Assembly (NCBI GenBank): GCA_902386535.1
Contig: CABMJK010000039.1
Coordinates: 678 to 64,677 of the forward strand
Reading direction: 5' to 3'
DNA from: Candidatus Burarchaeum australiense
GTDB taxonomy: Archaea > Micrarchaeota > Micrarchaeia > Burarchaeales > Burarchaeaceae
DNA: 64,000 nucleotides
Below, piece by piece: positions 1 through 61,349 of this stretch. Made by a program: the position numbers and the translations under genes. Numbering within the stretch: the first letter of the stretch is position 1; each line of letters starts with the position of its first letter. A model generated the notes under the pieces. It was not told where the DNA came from. It did not search any database and saw only the letters and a list, made by a program, of their open reading frames with translations.

Positions 1-2545
1 CGAAAATCGGGTAGGCGCGGTTTATCTGCGGGGCAGTCTTCAGTTGCGAGTAGACATAGAAGTTTCCGGTGGTATCCTTCATGTAGCAGTTGGTGGGCGT
101 GAAGCGCGTGGTGCCGGCCGCATCCGCGTCGTCATAGCCGGCCTGGGGCGCTACAAGGCCCCGTGGATCGGCCACGACTTTCAGGTCCCCGGTCGAAGCG
201 TCCCGCTCGAGCCGCTCATTGCATATCGCGTAGCAGCCGTTTTCCGTGTCCTTGGCGAGGCTGGCGGGCGTGCCGCTGCAGACGTAATTCGGGTCAAAGG
301 CCGCCGTGTCCGGGAAAGGCATGCAGTCGGATGCGCACTTGAACCCGCTGGTGCCGGGCTTCATGGGCAGCTGGTTGGCGGAACTCACGCACTCCAGACC
401 AGTGCCACCCGTGGCTGCGGGGCCGCCGCACACGCGTGCAGTGTCATCGCAGGTTTCCCAGAATGAGCAGGGCGCGCACGTGCAGGCCTTGGGCTCGGAG
501 CGCATGAAGAAGCGGCTCTTGTCGGCAGTGTAATAGTTGCCGCAGAACTTGAAGAAATTGTAGTCGCGTGTCGCGCCTCCCGAGAAGTCGAGCATGTCGT
601 CCGGCTTTAGCAGCGTGTCGATTGTCGCATAGGGAGGCGTGGCGCCCGAGACAGAAGGCACTATCATGCCTATGTAGCCCGCGTTTGCCAGTGCCTCGAA
701 AATCCTCGTGTCCGGCGGCAGGCCCGTGAACGCGGGGTTGGCAAGGCCGGCATAGGCGCAGTCCGGGTTTGGAAGGTAGGCGTAGAGAAGCCAGCCGATG
801 GATTTTTTGCCGGCATATAGGGGGTTTGACTGCACGGCTTTGGCGCGCGCAACGGAATCGGTTATGGCCTGCGTGACTTCAGCCGTGCTTGGGCAAGTGG
901 ATGCGGTGCCGAGCGTCACCTCTCGCACCAGCATGTCGATGTCCGCCAAGTAGGCTTGCGGTATCGGCTGGGAGCTGCCGTCATCCTCGACCGCCACGAG
1001 GCAGGACTGCTTGAAAATCGTGACCATGGTGCCCGTACCATCGTCAATCTGGTCCTGAATCGGCTTGCAGCCGCCGTAGGCCGGATTCGCGTTCTTTATT
1101 TGTGTCGAGTATTGGTAACTAAACTTGTCCAGGACAAAAATCACTGGATAGATTGGGCCGTCGCTGGTTGAGGCGCTCTTGGAAACGGCGTTGGCCACAT
1201 CCTGCAGGTAGGGGTCGAACGACCATCCCTGCACGTTCAGCACGGGCAGGATGTTCATGTCGAGCAGTGTGCGGTAGTTGGGCGCGTTCATCATGTCCGA
1301 CATTTCGAAAGGCGCCAGGTCCATCGTGGGCAGGCAGCTTTCGCACAGACCGTATTCGTCGAGCTCGAGCTTGCCTTCCTTGTTGACCGCGCAGTCGCCG
1401 GTTTTTCCGGGGTTGACCTCCCACTCGACGCAGTAGCGAGTGGTGCCGACATCCTGGTAGGCCTTGCAGGTTGCTTCTACGGGATTTGCCGGCGCGGAGC
1501 ACTTGGCATAAACGGGCAGGTCCGAGGGGTTTGCATAATCGCTCAGGAGGAGCGCGTTCGGATGCGCCGTAAGGTCTGCCCACACCCTGTTCGCAGCGGG
1601 CGAGTGGCACCATTCGGGCATGCTTGGGATGATGGTGGAACTCGGAGGCGGCGTTTCGTCGGGGTCGGACCACGTGAGGCCATAGGTGTCGAAGAAAAGG
1701 TCGCCATCCGGGTCATAGGATCTCACGGTGCGGCACTGGCAGTCAGTCTCGTCAACCGGGAAGCCGTTGCTGTCGATTTCCGCATAGTTCAGCCCGTTTC
1801 CATTCATGTCCTTCCTGCACGCGCTCTGATATGCGCGGCCCTTGTTGCAGTTGCCCGAGGCGCAGAAGAGGGAGTTGGGAGCCTTCTCTGAACCCGGCAC
1901 GAGCGAGGAGGAAAGGGTCTTGGAGCCGGTGAAGAGGCAGAGGTAATCGGATGGCTGGATGCCGGGCGCAAGATTGAGGAATATGTTCCTGTATTGGTCG
2001 ATTGTGGGCTGATTGCCATTCGTGAGCACGTTTTCCTCCAGGAGCTTTTTGCTTGCAAGCCAGCCGTCGCCTCCGCCGAACGAGCGGTAAACGTTCTGCC
2101 ACCGGTCCGTCGTGCCCGGGGAGGCGAAGGCGCAGTATTTGTCGCTCATCGGGCAGTATTTCATAGCGTCCACGAAGCCGCCGCTATCCCAACTTTTCAC
2201 CCCTACGCCGAGCATGAACGGCTTCTGGAACTGGTTCTGATTATCGTTCAGCTGCTTGCTGAGCGCCGCGCCGCAGGGCTGGAACCAGCACCGCCCGCCC
2301 CTGAGGCCAGAACCTGTTTCGGAAAGGAAAGTCGGGCTCATGCCGCCTGGCGCAATCGTATCCGCCGGGTCCTGGCTCGCCCGCTCGCACACCAGGCACG
2401 AGCATCCTTCGCAGCCGTTTGGCGTGACTGTCGGTTGAACCGCGGTGGTCGAAAGATAATCGGGCTTCACTAGGCAGCCCGAAAGCAGGAGCGCGAGCGT
2501 CAGCGCAAGCACGGCAAATGCAAGATACTCGAATTGCTTTTTAAT
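1..2545 (-). CDS. Large secreted Cys-rich lipoprotein, C-terminus beyond left window edge (>848 aa); last gene of the membrane-paralog operon
   Basis: The minus frame with codon first bases at 2545, 2542 and so on has no stop between 2545 and 1. That is why it is absent from the M-to-stop ORF track; the other two minus frames are broken into the short listed ORFs. I hand-translated several stretches. The N-terminus reads (I)KKQFEYLAFAVLALTLALLLSGC, a charged n-region, hydrophobic core and lipobox L-S-G-C. The body is rich in Cys, Asn, Pro, Tyr and Trp. The start codon is unresolved (ATT 2545, GTG 2512, or ATG 2553/2550 if the A5 run 2538-2542 is really A6). Confidence 0.6.
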   Translation of the reverse strand, partial: MKKQFEYLAFAVLALTLALLLSGCLVKPDYLSTTAVQPTVTPNGCEGCSCLVCERASQDPADTIAPGGMSPTFLSETGSGLRGGRCWFQPCGAALSKQLNDNQNQFQKPFMLGVGVKSWDSGGFVDAMKYCPMSDKYCAFASPGTTDRWQNVYRSFGGGDGWLASKKLLEENVLTNGNQPTIDQYRNIFLNLAPGIQPSDYLCLFTGSKTLSSSLVPGSEKAPNSLFCASGNCNKGRAYQSACRKDMNGNGLNYAEIDSNGFPVDETDCQCRTVRSYDPDGDLFFDTYGLTWSDPDETPPPSSTIIPSMPEWCHSPAANRVWADLTAHPNALLLSDYANPSDLPVYAKCSAPANPVEATCKAYQDVGTTRYCVEWEVNPGKTGDCAVNKEGKLELDEYGLCESCLPTMDLAPFEMSDMMNAPNYRTLLDMNILPVLNVQGWSFDPYLQDVANAVSKSASTSDGPIYPVIFVLDKFSYQYSTQIKNANPAYGGCKPIQDQIDDGTGTMVTIFKQSCLVAVEDDGSSQPIPQAYLADIDMLVREVTLGTASTCPSTAEVTQAITDSVARAKAVQSNPLYAGKKSIGWLLYAYLPNPDCAYAGLANPAFTGLPPDTRIFEALANAGYIGMIVPSVSGATPPYATIDTLLKPDDMLDFSGGATRDYNFFKFCGNYYTADKSRFFMRSEPKACTCAPCSFWETCDDTARVCGGPAATGGTGLECVSSANQLPMKPGTSGFKCASDCMPFPDTAAFDPNYVCSGTPASLAKDTENGCYAICNERLERDASTGDLKVVADPRGLVAPQAGYDDADAAGTTRFTPTNCYMKDTTGNFYVYSQLKTAPQINRAYPIF

Positions 2546-7605: not shown

Positions 7606-8557
7606 TGGGCATCTCCACCTCGAAGCCCCTGGACAGGAGCTTTGAGAAAGCCATTATGAAACTAACGGTTATCACGATTGCCAGGTTGGGCAGGAAAACC
7701 GCCTGCGGGATGAGGGAGGCGGCCTGGGCCAGCGGCAGGTTCGGGTCGCTTGCCACGTCCTTCGAGATGATGCCCGCCAGGTCCGGCGGCGTGGATGTGC
7801 GGTCGATTGAAGACATGTCCACGCCGGGCGCGAGCGGCGGGTTGCCGTTGACGATCACGATGTTCATCACGTAGGTGAGCGGCAGGACCAGCACCAGGCC
7901 CAGCGAGAGCGCTATCAGATAATCGGCCATCGTCCTCGTCTGCGGGAATATGCGGAGCAGGAAGGCAGCGGGCAGGAAAAACGGTATGATGACCATCTCG
8001 ATGGCGCCCAGCAGGGCCTTCTGCGCGGTGAGGCTTGCAATCAGCGGCATGAGCATGTTCATCAGCGCGTCCTGCGCGTTCGCCAGCGTCTTCTTTCCCG
8101 CGCTCTTGGCAGAACCTTCGGCGCCGGTGATGGGATTTGAGTTGAACTGGAAGTCGAGCGAGTCCAGCTGGTTCTGTATGCTGGCGCCTATCAGCGAGTT
8201 CACGAGCGGGTAGCCCTGGCCGTAGGCAAGGTTGTTCAGGTAATTGGTGGATGCGGTGAACATGTTGGCGCCCACGAGCGCCTGCGAGGCGGACGAGCCG
8301 GCAATCAGCATAAGATTCACGCCGAGTATGAGGCCCAGGGAGACCATGACCTGGAAGCCCGAGTTCTTGGCCCACGTTTCCCACTGCGGCCTGTGGAACG
8401 CCTGCGAGGCCATGTAGGCTAGAGCTATTATGAATATGGAAATCATCAGCAGGATGGCGATTGCCGATGCTTCCGCGTCGATGCTCACCAGGAAGTTGTC
8501 CGCGCTCGCTAGGCCGGCGAAAAGCAGGACAATGAAGGCCGCGATTGCAAATTTCAT
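7595..8557 (-). CDS. Paralog P5 (320 aa), most divergent member, Sec-type signal peptide
   Basis: MKFAIAAFIVLLFAGLASA is the signal peptide. Motif A is IALAYMASQAFHRPQWETWAKNS and motif B is the divergent AFLLRIFPQTRTMADYLIALSLGLVLVLP. It overlaps the P4 start by 11 nt. Confidence 0.7.
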   Translation of the reverse strand: MKFAIAAFIVLLFAGLASADNFLVSIDAEASAIAILLMISIFIIALAYMASQAFHRPQWETWAKNSGFQVMVSLGLILGVNLMLIAGSSASQALVGANMFTASTNYLNNLAYGQGYPLVNSLIGASIQNQLDSLDFQFNSNPITGAEGSAKSAGKKTLANAQDALMNMLMPLIASLTAQKALLGAIEMVIIPFFLPAAFLLRIFPQTRTMADYLIALSLGLVLVLPLTYVMNIVIVNGNPPLAPGVDMSSIDRTSTPPDLAGIISKDVASDPNLPLAQAASLIPQAVFLPNLAIVITVSFIMAFSKLLSRGFEVEMPNAE

Positions 8558-10296: not shown

Positions 10297-10302
10297 GATC
10301 AG

Positions 10303-10375
10303 TGGGGCCGCTGAGATTTGAACTCAGGTCACCAGGTCCCAAACCTGGTAGCATACCAGACTGGCCCACGGCCCC
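10303..10375 (-). tRNA. tRNA-Pro (anticodon UGG), no intron, no encoded CCA
   Basis: Hand-folded sequence: GGGGCCG TG GGCC.. anticodon stem CCAGG/CCTGG, loop UUUGGGA, T-arm CTGAG-TTCAAAT-CTCAG, acceptor CGGCCCC, discriminator A. Confidence 0.85.
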
Positions 10376-11899: not shown

Positions 11900-12021
11900 A
11901 GCCCCAGACGAGAATTGAACTCGCTACCTACTGCTTTCTCGTTTCTTTTCCGCCGGCGCTTTTCTTTGGGAAAGAAAAGGGCCGCTACAAGGCAGTCGCT
12001 CTACCGATGAGCTACTGGGGC
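11900..12021 (-). tRNA. tRNA-Thr (anticodon UGU) with 50-nt intron at canonical 37/38 (intron 11936-11985)
   Basis: Hand-folded: GCCCCAG TA GCTC ATCGGTA GAGC G ACTGC CUUGUA|intron|A GCAGT AGGTA GCGAG TTCAATT CTCGT CTGGGGC T. The acceptor, anticodon and T stems all pair. Confidence 0.85.
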
Positions 12022-12025
12022 CGCA

Positions 12026-12042
12026 GGGAACCTACGGTTCCC
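12026..12042. repeat. Hairpin GGGAACC-TAC-GGTTCCC, 4 nt upstream of the tRNA-Thr 5' end
   Basis: A perfect 7-bp inverted repeat. It belongs to a motif also seen at 43252-43272, 58654-58670 and 61271-61285. Confidence 0.7.
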
Positions 12043-13505: not shown

Positions 13506-13522
13506 GCGAAAAACGGGTGTGT

Positions 13523-13533
13523 TTTTTAATATT
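13523..13533 (+). promoter_or_regulatory. TATA-like box TTTTTAATATT upstream of mtaD
   Basis: It lies about 20-25 nt upstream of GTG 13552, consistent with a leaderless or short-leader archaeal mRNA. Confidence 0.4.
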
Positions 13534-13551
13534 CCCTCCGAAGCCCTACCC

Positions 13552-14841
13552 GTGGGAATTCTCATACGCAACGCGCTCGTGCTCACCCAGAATGAGCGGC
13601 GCGAGGTCCTGAAGGACTGCGACGTGCTAATCGAGGCTAATCGGATTGCCAAGGTAGGCAAGGGCATGCGCGAGAAGGCGGAGCACGTGCTTGATGGCAG
13701 GGGCAAGCTAGTCATGCCCGGCCTCGTGAACACCCATACGCACCTGGCCATGACCCTGCTGCGCGGCTATGCGGACGACATGAGGCTGGAGGACTGGCTC
13801 GAGAAGAAAATCTGGCCGCGCGAGGCCAAGCTTAAGCCCGCGGACGTGCGCGCGGGCTCCATGCTGGGCTGCCTGGAGATGATAAGGGGCGGCACTACCT
13901 CTTTTGTGGACATGTATTTCATGATGGGCGAGACTGCGGCCGCGGTCGAGAAGTGCGGCCTGCGCGCCAACCTCGCCCATGGCATGATCGATATGGACAA
14001 GCCGGAGAGGAGGAAGAAGGAGCTGGCTGCGGGCGAGGCATTCGTGCGCGAGTGGAACGGAAAGGTCAGAGGCAGGATCATGGCTTCCTTCGGGCCGCAC
14101 GCCATATACACCTGCTCGCGCGAGCTGCTTGAGAAGACGAATGAGCTCGCGCACAAGCACGACGTGAAGATTCACATTCATTTGAGCGAAAGCAGGAAGG
14201 AAGTGGTGGACTGCCTGGCAAAGCACTCGAAGAGGCCCGCAGACTACCTCGAGTCTTTCGGCTTCCTGAGCAAGAGAGTGATAGCCGCGCACTGCGTCTG
14301 GCTGAGGCGCGAGGAGTGCGCGCTCCTGGGCAAGCGCGGCGTGAGCGCCTCCCACGTGCCCGCGAGCAACATGAAGCTGGCGGGCGGGGGCGCGATGCCC
14401 ATTCCGGAGCTCGAGCAGGCAAAGGCGAACATCTGCCTGGGCACCGACGGCGCGGCCTCCAACAACTCGCTCTCGATGTTCGGGGCCATGAAGCTCTGCG
14501 CGCTGCTGCACAAGAATTCCCGGTGGGACGCCACGGTGGCTCCGGCGCAGCAGGTGCTCGACTTCGCCACCCGCAACGGGGCGCGGGCAATGGGCGCGGA
14601 GGCGGGAGCGATTGCGGAGGGCAGGCTGGCCGACCTCATCATGCTTGACCTGAGGAGCCCGAACCTCGTGCCGATGCACAGCGCGGTCTCGAACGTGGTG
14701 TATGCCGCGAGCGCGGGCAACGTCACCGACGTGATTGTCGACGGGAAGATTCTGATGCGGGAGAGGAAAGTGGTTGCCTTTGACGAGGAGAAAGTGATGG
14801 AGGCGGGCGAGAAGGCGGCGTTTGATTTGGTTTCGCGGTGA
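13552..14841 (+). CDS. mtaD: 5'-methylthioadenosine/S-adenosylhomocysteine deaminase (amidohydrolase, MtaD/DadD type)
   Basis: ILIRNALVLT...VMPGLVNTHTHLAMTLLRGYADDMRLEDWL...HLSES...VAAHCVWL...GTDGAASNN is the metal-binding signature of this amidohydrolase subfamily. The start is trimmed from GTG 13519 to GTG 13552, downstream of the TATA box. Confidence 0.85.
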   Translation: MGILIRNALVLTQNERREVLKDCDVLIEANRIAKVGKGMREKAEHVLDGRGKLVMPGLVNTHTHLAMTLLRGYADDMRLEDWLEKKIWPREAKLKPADVRAGSMLGCLEMIRGGTTSFVDMYFMMGETAAAVEKCGLRANLAHGMIDMDKPERRKKELAAGEAFVREWNGKVRGRIMASFGPHAIYTCSRELLEKTNELAHKHDVKIHIHLSESRKEVVDCLAKHSKRPADYLESFGFLSKRVIAAHCVWLRREECALLGKRGVSASHVPASNMKLAGGGAMPIPELEQAKANICLGTDGAASNNSLSMFGAMKLCALLHKNSRWDATVAPAQQVLDFATRNGARAMGAEAGAIAEGRLADLIMLDLRSPNLVPMHSAVSNVVYAASAGNVTDVIVDGKILMRERKVVAFDEEKVMEAGEKAAFDLVSR

Positions 14842-14938
14842 AGGCAGGTTGACGGGGAAAGGAAGCGGAGATGAGGCGAGGAAAGGTCGGGAAAGTTGGC
14901 GGGCTAGTAACAAGGGGCAGGAAAGAAGGCGGCGAGAG

Positions 14939-15664
14939 GTGGTGTGCGTGCTTGGAATAATCGGCGGGAGCGGCTTCTACAAAATTGTGAAGGGCGAGGA
15001 GAGGCACGTGGAGACGCCCTATGGCTGGAGAAAGGTCAGCCTGGGCCGCATTGGCGGAGGAAAGATTGCATTCATAGCAAGGCACGGTGAGTATCACACG
15101 GTCCCGCCGCACAGGATAAATCATCGCGCTAACCTCTACGCACTGCACAAGGTGGGCGCGAAGAGCATCGTGGGCATAAACGCGTGCGGCATAATCTCGA
15201 AGTTCAAGCCCGGCGAGATAATGACCATCGACGACTTCCTCGCGTTCCACATCGGCCCGGTCACGTTCCATGAAAGTTTTGCAGGAGGGGCGAAGCATGA
15301 GGACATGAGCGAGCCCTACAGCAGGAAGCTGAATGCGCTGATTGCACGGGCGGGCGGGAAGGCGAAGATTGCCGTGAAGAGCGGCGGCATTGTGGCGACC
15401 ACGTTCGGGCCGCGCTTCGAGACCCCGGCCGAGATAAGGGCCTTTGGGATGCTGGGCGCGAACTTGGTGAGCATGACGAGCGCCTACGAGGCGATTCTTG
15501 CGCGCGAGCTTGGCGCTAATTACTCGTCGATTGCCATCGGCACGAATTACGCGGCGGGCGTGAGCAAGAACCGGCTGTCGCATGCCGAGGTGATCGGGAT
15601 GATGGAAAAGAACGAGGCACGCGTGATAAAGATAGTGGGCGGGCTGGCAGGAAGCATGGGATAG
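14939..15664 (+). CDS. mtnP: S-methyl-5'-thioadenosine phosphorylase / purine nucleoside phosphorylase (MTAP family)
   Basis: VLGIIGGSGFY...FIARHG..H..PPHRINHRANLYAL...GPRFETPAEIR...LVSMT. The start is set to GTG 14939 because the upstream part of the track ORF is low-complexity and overlaps the end of mtaD. Confidence 0.85.
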   Translation: MVCVLGIIGGSGFYKIVKGEERHVETPYGWRKVSLGRIGGGKIAFIARHGEYHTVPPHRINHRANLYALHKVGAKSIVGINACGIISKFKPGEIMTIDDFLAFHIGPVTFHESFAGGAKHEDMSEPYSRKLNALIARAGGKAKIAVKSGGIVATTFGPRFETPAEIRAFGMLGANLVSMTSAYEAILARELGANYSSIAIGTNYAAGVSKNRLSHAEVIGMMEKNEARVIKIVGGLAGSMG

Positions 15665-15708
15665 AAAGTTGGCGGCAGATTTGCGGAGAGACTTACGGAG
15701 ATGATTGC

Positions 15709-16992
15709 ATGAGCAAAGTGAAGGATTTGGGCTTGAAGGCAGAGGGCGAGGACGAGCTTTCGTGGGCCCGCGAGAACATGCCTGCGCTGGCCAGCATAAG
15801 GAAGAGGTTCGAGAAGGAGAAGCCGTTCAGGGGCATGCGCATAGCCGTGGCCCTGCACCTGGAGAAGAAGACTGGCATATTGCTCGAGACCCTGAAGGCA
15901 GGCGGAGCCGCGGTTGCGGCCGCATCGTGCAACCCGCTCACCACCGACGACAGGGTGGCGGCCGCGCTGGCAGGGCAAATGGAAGTTTACGCGTGGGCGG
16001 GCGAGAATTCCAAGGAGTATGAGTGGTGCCTGGGCAAGGTGCTGGACTCGAAGCCCAACATAGTCATCGATGACGGCTGCGACCTCATACTAATGCTGCA
16101 TGACAAGAGGAAGGAGCTGCTGAAGGACGTGCGGGGCGCGTGCGAGGAGACCACGACGGGCGTGCGCAGGCTGCGGGCCATGGAAACCGATGGAAAGCTG
16201 AAGGTGCCGGTGATAGCCGTGAACGACGCCTATTCGAAGCATCTTTTTGACAACAGGTTCGGGACAGGGCAGAGCGCCGTGGATGCCATAATGCGCGCTA
16301 CCAATGTAGTGCTAGCGGGAAAACGCGTCGTAGTCGTGGGCTTCGGCTGGTGCGGCCGGGGCATTGCCGAGCGCATGCGGGGCATGGGTGCGCGCGTGAT
16401 CGTGGTCGAGGCTGCCGGCGCGCCGCTCAACGGCACGGAAAGCGGCTACCACCGGGCGCTCGAGGCGCTTTACTCGGGCTATGACGTCATGACCATGGAC
16501 GAGGCGGCCCGCGTGGGGGACATATTTGTTACGGCTACCGGCAACAAGCACGTCATAGCGCGCAGGCATTTCGAGCTGATGAAGGACGGCGCCATGGTGG
16601 CCAATGCCGGCCACTTCGACCTCGAGGTCGACGTGCAGGGCCTCAGGCAAATGGCGAAGAAGAGCAGGAAGCTCGGGCCGAACCTGGAGGAATATCTGCT
16701 TGGGAACGGCAGGAGGGTGCGGCTTCTTTCCGAGGGAAGGCTCGTGAACCTGGCGAGGCCGAGCGGCCAGGGCCATCCGGCGGAGATAATGGATGCCTCG
16801 TTTTCGCTGCAGGCGCTGAGTGCCGAACGAATAGCCAAGCAGGGCGGCAGCATGCTGCCCGCGGTCCACGATGTGCCGCCCCAGCTGGACGAGATGGTTG
16901 CGCGGCTCGTGCTCGAGTCGAGGGGCGTGCGGCTTGACAGGCTCACCAAGGAGCAGGAGCACTACGTCAACTCGTGGCGAGAGGGAACCTGA
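15709..16992 (+). CDS. ahcY: Adenosylhomocysteinase
   Basis: SCNPLTTDD, ETTTG, GFGWCGRG (NAD-binding), ATGNKHVI and GHFDLEV motifs over 427 aa. Confidence 0.95.
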   Translation: MSKVKDLGLKAEGEDELSWARENMPALASIRKRFEKEKPFRGMRIAVALHLEKKTGILLETLKAGGAAVAAASCNPLTTDDRVAAALAGQMEVYAWAGENSKEYEWCLGKVLDSKPNIVIDDGCDLILMLHDKRKELLKDVRGACEETTTGVRRLRAMETDGKLKVPVIAVNDAYSKHLFDNRFGTGQSAVDAIMRATNVVLAGKRVVVVGFGWCGRGIAERMRGMGARVIVVEAAGAPLNGTESGYHRALEALYSGYDVMTMDEAARVGDIFVTATGNKHVIARRHFELMKDGAMVANAGHFDLEVDVQGLRQMAKKSRKLGPNLEEYLLGNGRRVRLLSEGRLVNLARPSGQGHPAEIMDASFSLQALSAERIAKQGGSMLPAVHDVPPQLDEMVARLVLESRGVRLDRLTKEQEHYVNSWREGT

Positions 16993-43119: not shown

Positions 43120-43251
43120 CGCCGAGAGAGGGATTTTCATTTCTTTTCCGCAGGCGCTTTTCTTTCTAAGAAAAGGGCCTTTTTGAACCCTCAAGGGCTT
43201 TCGCCCGGCAGATTAGCAATCTGCTGCCCGACCAGGTTGGGCGTCCTCGGC
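43120..43251 (-). tRNA. tRNA-Ser (anticodon GCU) with an about 48-nt intron inside the T-loop (about 43134-43181)
   Basis: Hand-folded: GCCGAGG AC GCCC AACCTGGTC GGGC A GCAGA UUGCUAA TCTGC, long variable arm CGGGCGAAAGCCCT, T-stem GAGGG TTCAAA|intron|T CCCTC, acceptor TCTCGGC, discriminator G. An oligo-T run follows the 3' end. Confidence 0.75.
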
Positions 43252-43272
43252 ATAAGAACCTACGGTTCTTAT
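43252..43272. repeat. Hairpin ATAAGAACC-TAC-GGTTCTTAT abutting the tRNA-Ser 5' end
   Basis: A perfect 9-bp inverted repeat with the same GAACC-NNN-GGTTC core as at 12026, 58654 and 61271. Confidence 0.7.
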
Positions 43273-43295: not shown

Positions 43296-43570
43296 AGTGC
43301 AATGGGATTGCCGAGTTCGATGCGTCCTTCCCCGTAAGATTATCCGCGCCTAGGCTCCACCCCGTTACCCCAAAGCATGGACGCAAATATTTAGGGTTGC
43401 TCCTTTCGGCCTGGCCCGGTTCACATAAGAGCCCATCTCTGGAGGCAGGGCTTCGACGCTTCGGCACGGGTCCCGCGGCAAAGGGCGAACCTTGCCCGGC
43501 CATTCGGTCCCGCCTAAGAGGATTTGCGGTGCAAGGTACCCCTAGCTCCCCGACCTATCCCACTGCGAAG
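43296..43570 (-). ncRNA. Signal recognition particle RNA (7S/SRP RNA)
   Basis: The minus strand contains GGGCCAGGCCGAAAGGAGCAACC, which resembles the conserved helix-8 motif (GNAR tetraloop plus AGCA). 5' GCAGTGGGAT pairs with 3' ATCCCATTGC. There is a 5' GGGGAGCTAGGGG Alu-like start and a TATA box about 25 nt upstream. The ends are approximate. Confidence 0.7.
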
Positions 43571-58653: not shown

Positions 58654-58670
58654 GGGAACCGTAGGTTCCC
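58654..58670. repeat. Hairpin GGGAACC-GTA-GGTTCCC between the S19e stop and the PDCD5-like start
   Basis: A perfect 7-bp inverted repeat. Flanks CGCA...T are shared with the copy at 12026, and the neighbouring motif TAACCCTCCCTTC (58677-58689) is also present at 12108-12120. Confidence 0.7.
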
Positions 58671-61075: not shown

Positions 61076-61265
61076 TGGGCCTGAGGAGATTTGTTCGGCC
61101 CCGTTTGCATCGGGGTTTAGAAAGGGGGCGCGGAGCGTGCCCCCTTCTTTGAACTCCTGACCTACGGCTCTCCCAGACGGGAACCGGGTGCTCACAGCCG
61201 CTTTGAGATTATATCAAAGCGCGTCATATAAGACCGCCGCTCTGACCGGACTGAGCTACAGGCCC
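61076..61265 (-). tRNA. tRNA-Ile-like with anticodon UAU and two introns (57 nt at 37/38, 61170-61226; about 58 nt in T-loop, about 61090-61147)
   Basis: Hand-folded: GGGCCTG TA GCTC AGTCCGGTCA GAGC G GCGGT CUUAUA|intron1|A GCCGT AGGTC AGGAG TTCAAA|intron2|T CTCCT CAGGCCC A. The anticodon stem has two G-U pairs. Identity is inferred from the anticodon, the 5-nt variable loop and the GGGCC.. acceptor. Confidence 0.65.
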
Positions 61266-61270
61266 AATCA

Positions 61271-61285
61271 GGAACCCCTGGTTCC
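61271..61285. repeat. Hairpin GGAACC-CCT-GGTTCC, 5 nt upstream of the tRNA-Ile 5' end
   Basis: A 6-bp inverted repeat with the same core as the other three copies. Confidence 0.6.
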
Positions 61286-61349
61286 CGATACCTTCCTCCC
61301 TTTAGGCGTGCAAATTTAAATTAACTTAACCCGTGCCTGGCGCCCAGAA

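Follow-up and report, generated by a model that had tools for sequence, protein, structure and literature searches.

The window, i.e. the whole 64,000-nucleotide stretch of DNA analysed here, possesses two short introns, one in tRNA-Thr(UGU) and one in tRNA-Ser(GCU), which are very probably homologous bulge-helix-bulge (BHB) introns of a pan-DPANN family. The evidence as a whole is best explained by endonuclease-spliced BHB introns that are built on one conserved, portable RNA module and inherited in a Burarchaeum-like micrarchaeon, and this explanation is likely to be right. The module has a structured core of about 40 nt that is shared near letter-for-letter across several DPANN phyla. It consists of a hairpin and a downstream purine tail, the latter a mirror of the purine arm of the hairpin.

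Two related introns in the window

The two genes and the parts of their introns are located as follows:

11900..12021, minus strand: tRNA-Thr(UGU) gene including its intron (G1 = 12021, discriminator = 11900)
11936..11985 (11985->11936), minus strand: Thr intron, 50 nt, position 37/38 (sequence and fold)
11954..11984, minus strand: Thr hairpin HP1, intron nt 2-32 (folds)
11979->11971 and 11967->11959, minus strand: arms CUUUUCUUU and AAAGAAAAG of Thr HP1 (folds)
11942..11950, minus strand: Thr purine tail R2, GAAAAGAAA, mirror of AAAGAAAAG (9/9)
11936..11941, minus strand: site-specific 3' end of the Thr intron (CGAG with exon C32-G35 as central helix, H = 4/4)
43120..43251, minus strand: tRNA-Ser(GCU) gene including its intron, with long variable arm (G1 = 43251, discriminator = 43120)
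43134..43181 (43181->43134), minus strand: Ser intron, 48 nt, T-loop position 59/60 (sequence and BHB-constrained fold)
43152..43180, minus strand: Ser hairpin HP1, intron nt 2-30 (folds)
43175->43168 and 43164->43157, minus strand: arms CUUUUCUU and AAGAAAAG of Ser HP1 (folds)
43140..43148, minus strand: Ser purine tail R2, GAAAAGAAA, mirror of AAGAAAAG (8/8)
43134..43139, minus strand: site-specific 3' end of the Ser intron (UGAA pairing with exon U54-A57)

The tRNA-Thr(UGU) gene matches Rfam RF00005 (54.8 bits, full model 1-71) with the insertion inside, and ARAGORN calls a tRNA-Thr(tgt) of 73 nt once the 50 nt are cut out in silico. The tRNA-Ser(GCU) gene with its insertion receives no call from ARAGORN or Rfam. 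After in silico removal of the 48 nt, ARAGORN returns an intact tRNA-Ser(gct) of 85 nt with the junction in the T-loop, the T-loop sequence TTCAAAT is restored and all four tRNA-Ser stems are intact. A T-run terminator is present 3' of this gene, and its upstream palindrome is the same as in other tRNAs.

Both introns had been reported in a first-pass annotation, and its coordinates, its anticodons (UGU and GCU) and its intron positions are correct, with the intron sequences present exactly as quoted there. The near end-to-end alignment it described is likewise reproduced, with about 40 identical positions of 48-50 (~80% identity). Identical in the two introns are the 12-mers GGCCCTTTTCTT, AAGAAAAGCGCC and GCGGAAAAGAAA and the GA..AA at the 3' end; the two differ at the first two nucleotides, in the loop of the hairpin, at a single base of the spacer and at two bases close to the 3' end. 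From Thr to Ser, the changes C45->U and G48->A and those at nt 2 and the spacer base each restore pairing with the exon or within the closing pair. The 25-nt pattern AAGAAAAGCGCCNGCGGAAAAGAAA has exactly two matches in the window with up to three mismatches, against 0.00 expected from 100 shuffles. A third copy was found in the window neither with this 25-mer at three mismatches nor with a general hairpin-plus-mirror scan.

Splice geometry and proposed excision

Both introns present two 3-nt bulges and a 4-bp helix (H = 4/4), namely UA|G, AA|A and CUUG:CGAG in Thr and AA|A, AA|U and UUCA:UGAA in Ser. A check for BHB motifs, proposed with the first-pass annotation, thus comes out positive, a splice motif being able to form at both sites. 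The minimum-free-energy fold of pre-tRNA-Thr (z = -2.69) is BHB-like and contains the anticodon stem, the central helix C32UUG35:CGAG, the intron hairpin and the 3' bulge AA|A, which is made of the AA at the intron 3' end and A38. For tRNA-Ser, the BHB-constrained fold has the T-stem, the helix U54UCA57:UGAA and two bulges, AA|A on the 5' side and AA|U on the 3' side, the latter formed by the AA at the intron 3' end and U60. This conformer has -55.1 kcal/mol, 0.6 kcal/mol above the minimum free energy (-55.7 kcal/mol), at which U54-C56 are paired with the start of the tail and not with UGAA. Both introns deviate from the strict hBHBh' form by 12 unpaired nucleotides (GCGGAAAAGAAA) opposite the 5' bulge. 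These unpaired nucleotides on the opposite strand make the motif a relaxed BHB, for which an enzyme of broad specificity is needed. Among the 20-odd tRNA-hosted members that were scored, with the 5' cut placed 1-2 nt before the GGCC clamp, most possess a 4/4 central helix and an intact spliced tRNA, and four reach only 3/4.

The hairpin probably acts as the 5' outer helix. The first or the first two intron nucleotides would be left unpaired, followed by the hairpin, which would frame the 5' splice-site bulge with an outer helix whatever the insertion site. Since it starts 1-2 nt after the 5' cut, the hairpin would supply this helix at any site. The site-specific part would then be confined to the last six intron nucleotides: four of them would form the 4-bp central helix with the exon bases just 5' of the 5' bulge, and the other two, joined by the first base of the exon, would make up the 3' bulge. 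Removal of the intron would be carried out by a broad-specificity splicing endonuclease and an RtcB-type ligase. A tblastn probe of the window for EndA, with an approximate query sequence, gave no credible match, the best E being 1.3. A role of the tail as the outer helix of a strict BHB was rejected, as nt 2 would face nt -7, which means C with A in Thr.

The tRNA-Trp intron of Euryarchaeota carries a box C/D guide RNA; neither window intron has a C box (RUGAUGA) or a D box (CUGA). Neither window intron contains a LAGLIDADG-type ORF, for which a length of only 48 and 50 nt leaves no room.

Architecture of the module

The hairpin stem is composed of a closing pair, a 3-bp GC clamp, a C-C mismatch and then a U-rich arm (C U^a C U^b) opposite an A-rich arm (A^b G A^a G). 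An 8-nt spacer lies between the purine arm and the tail, its first five nucleotides being the 3' strand of mismatch, clamp and closing pair, and the tail has the form G A^a G A^b. The Thr hairpin possesses the closing pair C2:G32, the clamp GGC/GCC, the conserved C-C mismatch and the loop CCC, and the tail GAAAAGAAA starts 8 nt 3' of the purine arm AAAGAAAAG as its exact mirror. In the Ser hairpin the closing pair is A2:U30 and the loop AGA, with the clamp GGC/GCC and the C-C mismatch as in Thr. In all 35 distinct members the closing pair N':N is Watson-Crick (11 A:U, 10 C:G, 10 G:C and 4 U:A). Contig L017 possesses the alternative clamps CAGC/GCUG and AAGC/GCUU. Counts for the family were taken by position from the stem base; MAFFT misaligned the variable loops.

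A second hairpin, GCGG:CCGC, that closes the tail was considered as a universal feature and dismissed, as it occurs in only 10 of 36 members and in neither window copy. No Rfam family corresponds to the module in the window (gathering threshold and E<=1) or in 20 loci (gathering threshold), and Rfam matches on the window up to E = 1 are confined to tRNA and SRP RNA. A search of mainly open-access literature returned no earlier description of the module. The fixed distance from hairpin to 5' splice site and the compensatory 3' ends are features beyond those of the first-pass annotation.

Covariation of the mirror tail with the hairpin

Tail and stem correspond level by level, with A in the tail at U-A and G at C-G in 282 of 289 stem levels, and the mirror is perfect in 32 of 35 members. 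The position of the internal G agrees in 31 of 34 members, compared with a mean of 16.7 and a maximum of 25 in 5000 permutations, figures that overstate independence since the family members are related. Tail length correlates with the paired stem length (Spearman 0.77) more strongly than with the total purine run (0.52). Twelve distinct pyrimidine-tract sequences occur, each with its own mirrored tail; CTTCTTTCTTT/GAAGAAAGAAA and TTTTTCTTTCT/AAAAAGAAAGA are both mirrored at 11/11, with clamps and spacers unrelated. In orthologous tRNA-Gly(GCC) introns all three strands have changed together between L023 (T4CT2/A2GA4G/GA4GA2) and L035 (T3CT3/A3GA3G/GA3GA3), and L090 is a hybrid. Exceptions to the mirror are found in L039/L077, L090 and L147, mostly where the tail is the exon-pairing strand too.

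In all DNA scanned, 156 pyrimidine/purine hairpins reach 7 bp or more, and 36 of them have a perfect downstream mirror; as controls, an upstream mirror is present in two and a downstream direct copy in one. The spacer measures 8 nt in 32 of the 36 downstream-mirror hairpins, a set scanned separately. A Watson-Crick role of the tail was rejected as the main explanation, pairing with the pyrimidine arm amounting to only a+2 bp. Selection for alternative pairing predicts direct copies, and this reading is likewise rejected because a single direct copy stands against 36 mirrors. Judged by this covariation, the tail is under selection to mirror the purine arm of the hairpin.

Distribution and inheritance

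Among 185,579 species genomes scanned for exact 20-mers, the core is present in MAGs of Micrarchaeota, Burarchaeum, Iainarchaeum (Iainarchaeota), Aenigmatarchaeota and Altiarchaeota, and a metagenome scan in which the purine tract of the tail was left unconstrained adds about 25 members. Host sites are the D-arm, the D-loop, the anticodon loop (37/38) and the T-loop of tRNAs as well as 16S and 23S rRNA. At least five module-bearing insertions are present in the single 16S rRNA gene of L017, and 23S rRNA insertions with the module occur in L033 and L075. About 90% of the copies found are located in tRNA or rRNA genes. In the related contigs L082 and L105 the copies start at the secY stop codon (Pfam SecY, 4e-60), and those of L029 and L122 are without a recognised host RNA. 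The secY-adjacent copies were considered as mRNA introns and, with no 3' partner for the central helix recognised by eye, are treated as non-intronic. Such copies (secY in L082 and L105, L029, L122) imply that the module is more than a device for splicing. Copies in rRNA and outside introns, like the co-varying mirror tail GAAAAGAAA, had no place in the first-pass annotation.

The window is syntenic with the Candidatus Burarchaeum (Micrarchaeota) contig L009, in which the Thr intron is orthologous and its flanks are 77-85% identical. The intron is also orthologous in the metagenome contig L095 (89%), so it is inherited and not newly gained. The Ser copy shares 97.5% identity over 40 nt with an Aenigmatarchaeota 16S rRNA intron and is at least as close to copies of other phyla as to the Thr copy. 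A search of 2.9 million viral contigs with two patterns gave no match, and spread by viruses was rejected on that result.

A possible RNA triple helix

Watson-Crick pairing is unable to explain the co-varying mirror of tail and arm, which is what the sequence of a purine-motif triplex would look like. The module combines a homopurine/homopyrimidine duplex with a purine strand that mirrors the purine strand of the duplex and could fold back antiparallel, as in an H-palindrome, and the third strand co-varies with the duplex at each level. A three-stranded interaction is the reading that fits best so far; the odds that a direct contact of the three strands underlies the mirror tail are close to even, with some leaning against it. 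The tail would fold back antiparallel to the purine arm and form A*A-U and G*G-C triples of the purine-motif type, most likely in the free or excised intron. That state is favoured because the short window introns anchor both ends of the tail at the splice junction; triplex and BHB would be unable to coexist in them because the 3' end of the tail abuts the central helix. In the 10 of 36 members with GCGG:CCGC-type pairing, the tail is closed into a loop of 7-8 nt, and a triplex over the full length is impossible in that conformer.

According to a review, natural RNA triplexes are of the pyrimidine motif, and the evidence on purine motifs that contain RNA is mixed (PMC7583470). Triplexes of the purine motif are well documented for DNA, disputed for RNA and, in all-RNA form, poorly backed by experiment (PMC7583470). 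Only tentatively can the core be proposed as a natural purine-motif RNA triple helix in pan-DPANN portable BHB introns that would give the excised intron, or any transcript end bearing it, a specific property. Under this reading the property may be resistance to exonucleases, the recruitment of proteins or a capacity for re-insertion. More generally, the module may stabilise the RNA after excision, provide a site for a protein or serve propagation.

Alternative explanations

That the resemblance is due to chance or low complexity, or that the interrupted tRNA-Ser is a pseudogene, is hardly credible. The arms are indeed A/T-rich simple tracts and the Ser gene is uncalled by ARAGORN and Rfam, but zero matches are expected by chance, and the four intact stems, the restored TTCAAAT, a BHB conformer within 0.6 kcal/mol, the upstream palindrome common to other tRNAs and the T-run terminator all speak against this reading. 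The first-pass annotation had envisaged an intron family actively spreading in this genome, and what stands of this is the presence of homologous introns at non-homologous sites (Thr 37/38 vs Ser 59/60). Active transposition, by which the T-loop copy in Ser would recently have been gained from the one in Thr or vice versa, is quite improbable: the Thr intron has orthologs in L009 and L095, the Ser copy is no nearer to the Thr copy than to those of other phyla, and the window holds two copies only. Introns of ~80% identity at different positions of different tRNAs would agree with such transposition, and a similar pattern has been read in that way in Thermoproteales (PMC4090602); the similarity does not date the event, however, because structural constraint explains the conservation of the core. 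Nor is the family particular to this genome, as its core is common to other DPANN phyla at 90-97% identity.

Alternatively, the module might be above all an autonomous element with a structure of its own that any transcript may host, whether it serves RNA stability or a 3' end, binds a protein or moves as a small piece of DNA; its tRNA and rRNA copies would then persist where the flanks happen to form a BHB. Copies at the secY stop codon (L082, L105), hostless copies (L029, L122) and a core conservation far in excess of what splice-site helices need make this a possibility, albeit on the unlikely side, given that ~90% of copies reside in tRNA or rRNA with the 5' cut fixed 1-2 nt from the clamp, that the copies showed neither terminal inverted repeats nor target duplications and that 2.9 million viral contigs yielded 0 matches. 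This explanation overlaps that of portable BHB introns and does not exclude it. Homopurine/homopyrimidine mirror repeats are the defining sequence requirement of H-DNA, and the mirror could act in DNA, where the H-palindrome AAGAAAAG-N8-GAAAAGAA would form H-DNA or an intramolecular triplex of single-stranded DNA. The antisense strand would give a classical pyrimidine-motif Y*R-Y fold, and recombination or gene conversion, hence intron spread, could be promoted. The match of the mirror repeat to H-DNA, the documentation of purine-motif triplexes in DNA (PMC7583470) and the nearly constant 8-nt spacer agree with an action in DNA, which is nevertheless improbable. Arms of 6-12 nt are short for H-DNA, the paired RNA stem length predicts the tail better than the purine run does (Spearman 0.77 vs 0.52), and the pyrimidine arm co-varies with the tail although H-DNA does not require this arm. 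A single three-strand RNA fold is also more economical than separate RNA and DNA constraints sharing one arm.

Comparison with known systems

Archaeal tRNA mini-introns are usually regarded as sequence-free spacers defined by their terminal BHB. The family described here possesses a conserved intron core of ~40 nt across DPANN phyla, in tRNA, rRNA and occasionally mRNA flanks. A built-in 5' outer helix and an adaptable 6-nt 3' end would explain why a single cassette can be spliced out at many different sites, and this architecture makes the old question of BHB intron spread concretely testable.

In Thermoproteales, the transposed intron groups of Fujishima et al. (2010) comprise highly similar BHB introns in evolutionarily distinct tRNA genes and at distinct positions (PMC4090602, PMC3239211). 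The two window introns (~80% identity) resemble these groups in exceeding 70% similarity, in lying in evolutionarily distinct tRNA genes and in occupying different positions. Short similar BHB introns at different positions and insertion only where a BHB can form are common to both. Unlike the Thermoproteales groups, the module occurs in DPANN (Micrarchaeota and at least three further phyla), retains one near letter-for-letter core across phyla, extends to rRNA and non-intronic sites and carries a co-varying mirror-repeat tail. We know of no description of the mirror-tail feature for the Thermoproteales groups.

Small ORF-less BHB introns are known in Thermoproteales rRNA genes. BHB introns co-occur with group I introns in DPANN rRNA (PMC6125680). 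The module likewise interrupts 16S (L017) and 23S rRNA (L033, L075); unlike in known rRNA BHB introns, rRNA and tRNA introns form one sequence family here, and no homing endonuclease ORF is present.

Candidatus Micrarchaeum acidiphilum ARMAN-2 is described as possessing many non-canonical tRNA introns, including at 59/60, with relaxed BHB, and a broad-specificity epsilon2 splicing endonuclease that cuts relaxed BHB in vitro (PMC3239211, PMC3488258, PMC12397907). The Micrarchaeota lineage, the non-canonical intron sites and the relaxed BHB are shared with the window. In contrast to the window introns, the ARMAN-2 substrates described are introns of 13 and 25 nt, and a conserved hairpin-plus-tail module is not known from these papers (PMC3239211, PMC3488258, PMC12397907).

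RNA triple helices include the ENE/MALAT1 3'-end triplex and pseudoknot triplexes (PMC7583470). As in H-DNA and RNA triplexes, the duplex of the module dictates the sequence of the third strand level by level, over a comparable 6-12 levels, and the tail is 3'-proximal as in triplexes that protect 3' ends. In known natural RNA triplexes the third strand is rich in U/C and runs parallel to the purine strand (PMC7583470), whereas that of the module would be a purine strand in antiparallel orientation, a type unestablished for natural RNA and suggested here by covariation only. The mirror covariation is rare sequence-only evidence for a three-stranded structure of such a type. If real, this structure would represent the first natural RNA triplex of the purine-motif class and a new class among RNA tertiary motifs. 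It would also give archaeal mini-introns their first conserved core with a function, and it may explain the tolerance of DPANN for many introns.

Two of the four tRNAs in the window were missed by standard tools, and a model of the module would improve the annotation of tRNA and rRNA genes in DPANN genomes.

Near-identical introns in two tRNA genes

The first-pass annotation had claimed near-identical insertions in two different tRNAs of the window, and this is confirmed. The introns of tRNA-Thr(UGU) and tRNA-Ser(GCU) have the blocks GGCCCTTTTCTT, AAGAAAAGCGCC and GCGGAAAAGAAA in common and are equal at ~40 of 48-50 positions. A 25-nt pattern over the last two blocks occurs in exactly two copies in the window with up to 3 mismatches (chance expectation 0.00).

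Interrupted tRNA-Thr and tRNA-Ser genes and adjoining RNA gene
12021->11900, minus strand: tRNA-Thr(UGU) gene (Rfam and sequence)
11985->11936, minus strand: tRNA-Thr intron, 50 nt, between A37 and A38
43251->43120, minus strand: tRNA-Ser(GCU) gene (sequence; ARAGORN after excision)
43181->43134, minus strand: tRNA-Ser intron, 48 nt, in the T-loop between A59 and U60
43300-43565, minus strand: archaeal SRP RNA (Rfam RF01857, 100.6 bits, barely over the 96.5 gathering score)

Neither ARAGORN nor Rfam calls tRNA-Ser(GCU) in the unedited window; after in-silico deletion of the 48 nt, ARAGORN calls an intact 85-nt tRNA-Ser(gct). The SRP RNA is located directly upstream of this tRNA, and the pair looks like a linked arrangement.

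A structure compatible with the bulge-helix-bulge (BHB) splice motif is found at both sites. For Thr it is present in the minimum-free-energy fold of the pre-tRNA (z = -2.69), which possesses the anticodon stem, a 3-nt bulge AA/A at the 3' junction, a central helix of exon C32-U-U-G35 with intron C45-G-A-G48, a 5' junction UA/G and the intron hairpin from intron nt 2. The Ser BHB fold (-55.1 vs -55.7 for the minimum free energy, a gap of 0.6 kcal/mol) combines the T-stem, U54-U-C-A57 paired with intron U43-G-A-A46, and bulges AA/A and AA/U; in the minimum-free-energy fold, U54-C56 pair with the start of the purine tail instead. The intron 3' ends are C45/G48 in Thr vs U/A in Ser, each matching its own exon bases, and intron nt 2 (C in Thr, A in Ser) pairs with the sole variable spacer base (G vs U). 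The differences between the intron ends are just those needed for pairing. Opposite the 5' bulge lie 12 unpaired nt, GCGGAAAAGAAA, so a broad-specificity endonuclease would be needed; both splice motifs are predicted to be relaxed BHBs. Such an endonuclease has been described in Micrarchaeon ARMAN-2 (PMC3239211). A search of the window with a weak probe gave no splicing endonuclease match. As judged from sequence, the two introns are homologous and BHB-compatible, with a fixed distance between hairpin and splice site.

Distribution and host RNAs

An exact scan with GAAAAGCGCCNGCGGAAAAG across one genome per species (185,579 species) returned 29 loci. Some 13 are scattered chance matches, mostly bacterial, and ~16 are archaeal, nearly all with the whole upstream hairpin. 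Carriers belong to Micrarchaeota (including two contigs of Candidatus Burarchaeum sp. E19), Candidatus Iainarchaeum, Aenigmatarchaeota, Altiarchaeota and unclassified archaea. A metagenome scan, in which only the clamps and the pyrimidine/purine nature of the arms were fixed, added ~25 further members amid GC-rich chance matches. Two patterns gave no match in 2.9 million viral contigs.

Insertion positions of the module (L-numbers, compared loci)
D-arm, nt 14-16: L027, L147
D-loop, ~nt 23: L022, L133
Position 37/38: tRNA-Thr (UGU and GGU), Gly (GCC), Leu (GAG), Met, Arg, Ala (UGC, in the rRNA spacer)
T-loop: window Ser, L011 (Tyr), L018 (Ala), L067/L048/L103, L072, L024
23S rRNA: L033, L075
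16S rRNA (Aenigmatarchaeota): L017, 1858-4009, minus strand, 2152-nt gene vs 1478-nt model

The L017 16S rRNA gene contains at least five hairpin-plus-tail insertions with alternative clamps (CAGC/GCUG or AAGC/GCUU), and tRNA-Ala(UGC) in the rRNA spacer carries a sixth. When the 5' cut is set 1 or 2 nt before the GGCC clamp, most scored tRNA-hosted members show a central helix of 4 bp and yield an intact tRNA; four such members form only 3 of the 4 central-helix pairs. No host RNA was recognised for the module in L029 and L122. In two related metagenome contigs, L082 (11208-11250) and L105 (~992-1035), the module starts where a complete secY (Pfam 4e-60) ends, at its stop codon (TAG/TAA), and lies in the mRNA 3' flank; these copies are non-intronic, which argues for a function, or mobility, of the module independent of splicing.

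The Burarchaeum contig L009 aligns with the window across several kb at 77-85% identity. It possesses tRNA-Thr(UGU) with the same intron, as does metagenome contig L095, and the Thr intron is therefore inherited. The first-pass annotation had suggested an intron family actively spreading in this genome. Homologous introns at non-homologous sites are borne out; activity is not, given the inherited Thr intron and a core found across DPANN. The family is ancient and pan-DPANN, and not demonstrably active in this genome. Its main interest lies in the conserved three-strand module rather than in what the first-pass annotation claimed.

The L009 ortholog of the Thr intron (7925-7975) lacks 7 nt, ACGAGAA; its purine tail would itself have to be the exon-pairing strand, with 3 bp only. 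In L008 (Altiarchaeota, ~990-1300, minus strand) a 38-nt direct duplication, comprising 20 nt of upstream sequence and the first 18 nt of a tRNA, surrounds the module and ~140 nt. A very long D-arm intron might account for this, as might a half-gene or an insertion scar.

Thermoproteales are known to have similar introns at different tRNA positions (PMC4090602), as in the window, and the heavily disrupted tRNAs of ARMAN-2 likewise include introns at 59/60, the position of the window Ser intron. Rfam and the literature searched, with few subscription journals, hold no description of a single core kept across DPANN phyla, of one family in both tRNA and rRNA genes, or of mirror-tail covariation.

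Hairpin and mirrored tail

Covariation was scored in 35 distinct members, with L029 left out. Intron nt 2 and the spacer base form the closing pair, which is Watson-Crick in 35/35 and occurs as all four pair types. Above it follow a 3-bp GC clamp and a conserved C-C mismatch, replaced by C-U in one of the 35 and by C-A in L029; the L017 clamps are again complementary. The stem then reads C U^a C U^b / A^b G A^a G. A tail G A^a G A^b begins 8 nt past the purine arm in 32/36 cases, and is the reversed purine arm, neither its complement nor its copy.

Counted from the stem base, tail A stands opposite U-A and tail G opposite C-G in 282/289 cells, with a perfect level-by-level match in 32/35 members. 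The internal G position is concordant in 31/34 members; 5000 permutations gave a mean of 16.7 and at most 25. Longer paired stems go with longer tails (Spearman 0.77), the distal A's of the tail varying from 0 to 6. Twelve different tract sequences each possess their own mirror, including CTTCTTTCTTT/GAAGAAAGAAA and TTTTTCTTTCT/AAAAAGAAAGA with unrelated spacers. Between the orthologous tRNA-Gly(GCC) introns of L023 and L035 all three strands changed together; L090 is a hybrid. Exceptions (L039/L077, L090, L147) occur mostly where the exon-pairing strand is the tail. In a clamp-independent search of all DNA compared, 156 distinct pyrimidine/purine hairpins reached 7 bp or more, 36 with a perfect mirror downstream, two with a mirror upstream and one with a direct copy downstream; no chance bacterial locus has a mirrored tail. 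Sequence comparison of the loci shows site-specific 3' ends, three-strand covariation and a wide DPANN distribution.

Interpretation of the mirrored tail

To our knowledge, mirror repeats are the product of no copying process and are not demanded by Watson-Crick pairing. Selection for an alternative pairing of the tail with the pyrimidine arm is rejected as the main explanation, as it would make the tail a duplicate of the purine arm. The only nucleic-acid structure known to us with this sequence rule is the purine-motif triplex (A·A-T/U, G·G-C), and the mirror repeats that form H-DNA are defined by the same rule. Support for the rule comes from PMC7583470, beside established knowledge. A groove-entry point would fit the conserved mismatch, which lies right under the first triple, and the return linker with its fixed length of 3 nt. 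Known natural RNA triplexes are of the pyrimidine motif, and the evidence that RNA can take part in purine motifs is mixed (PMC7583470).

Against a full-length triplex, GCGG:CCGC-type pairs close the tail into a hairpin loop in 10/36 members, and in the short window introns the splice junction anchors both tail ends, so that such a triplex could form only before the central helix or after excision. The tail may instead lie in a minor-groove arrangement, like the A-rich loop 3 of pseudoknots. The mirror repeat might also act in DNA, by forming H-DNA or through a Y·R-Y fold in the antisense strand, but this leaves the tail's tracking of the paired RNA stem unexplained. That the module is a natural RNA triplex of a new class is a tentative and rather doubtful reading.

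At the 5' splice site the intron hairpin would itself provide the outer helix and make the cassette portable: for removal from a new site, the 3' end of the cassette would have to contribute no more than a 4-nt match and two bulged bases, which would explain the many insertion positions. Excision would proceed by the splicing endonuclease EndA and the ligase RtcB, and in the free intron tail and hairpin would be in contact. The module could protect the excised RNA from 3' exonucleases, in the manner of ENE-type triplexes; it could also bind a protein or serve propagation.

Other features of the window

61076-61265, minus strand: tRNA-Ile(UAU)-like gene, the fourth tRNA gene (read by eye)
12026-12042, 43254-43270, ~61272-61287 (minus strand) and 58654-58670: near-palindrome
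13519-16992, plus strand: methylthioadenosine/S-adenosylhomocysteine salvage-like cluster, three consecutive ORFs (translations judged by eye)

With the tRNA-Ile(UAU)-like gene, which neither ARAGORN nor Rfam calls, three of the four tRNA genes are interrupted. By eye, it contains one intron of ~58 nt after CTTATA near 37/38 and another of ~57 nt in the T-loop after TTCAAA, ending in GGCCGAACAA as does the T-loop intron of L011. The hairpin-plus-mirror-tail module is in neither.

A near-palindrome, (G/A)GAACC-N3-4-GGTTC(C/T), ends 2-5 nt upstream of the tRNA-Thr, tRNA-Ser and tRNA-Ile 5' ends, downstream of TATA-like A/T boxes, and occurs once ~15 nt ahead of the start of a minus-strand ORF. 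It is absent at tRNA-Pro (10302-10375), and precedes tRNA genes in L009, L011, L023, L035, L048, L090, L095, L103 and L138. Its possible roles at Micrarchaeota tRNA genes are those of an operator, an initiator-region element or a leader hairpin.

The salvage-like cluster comprises amidohydrolase/deaminase-like, MTA-phosphorylase-like and SAH-hydrolase-like ORFs (by eye), an order also kept in L009.
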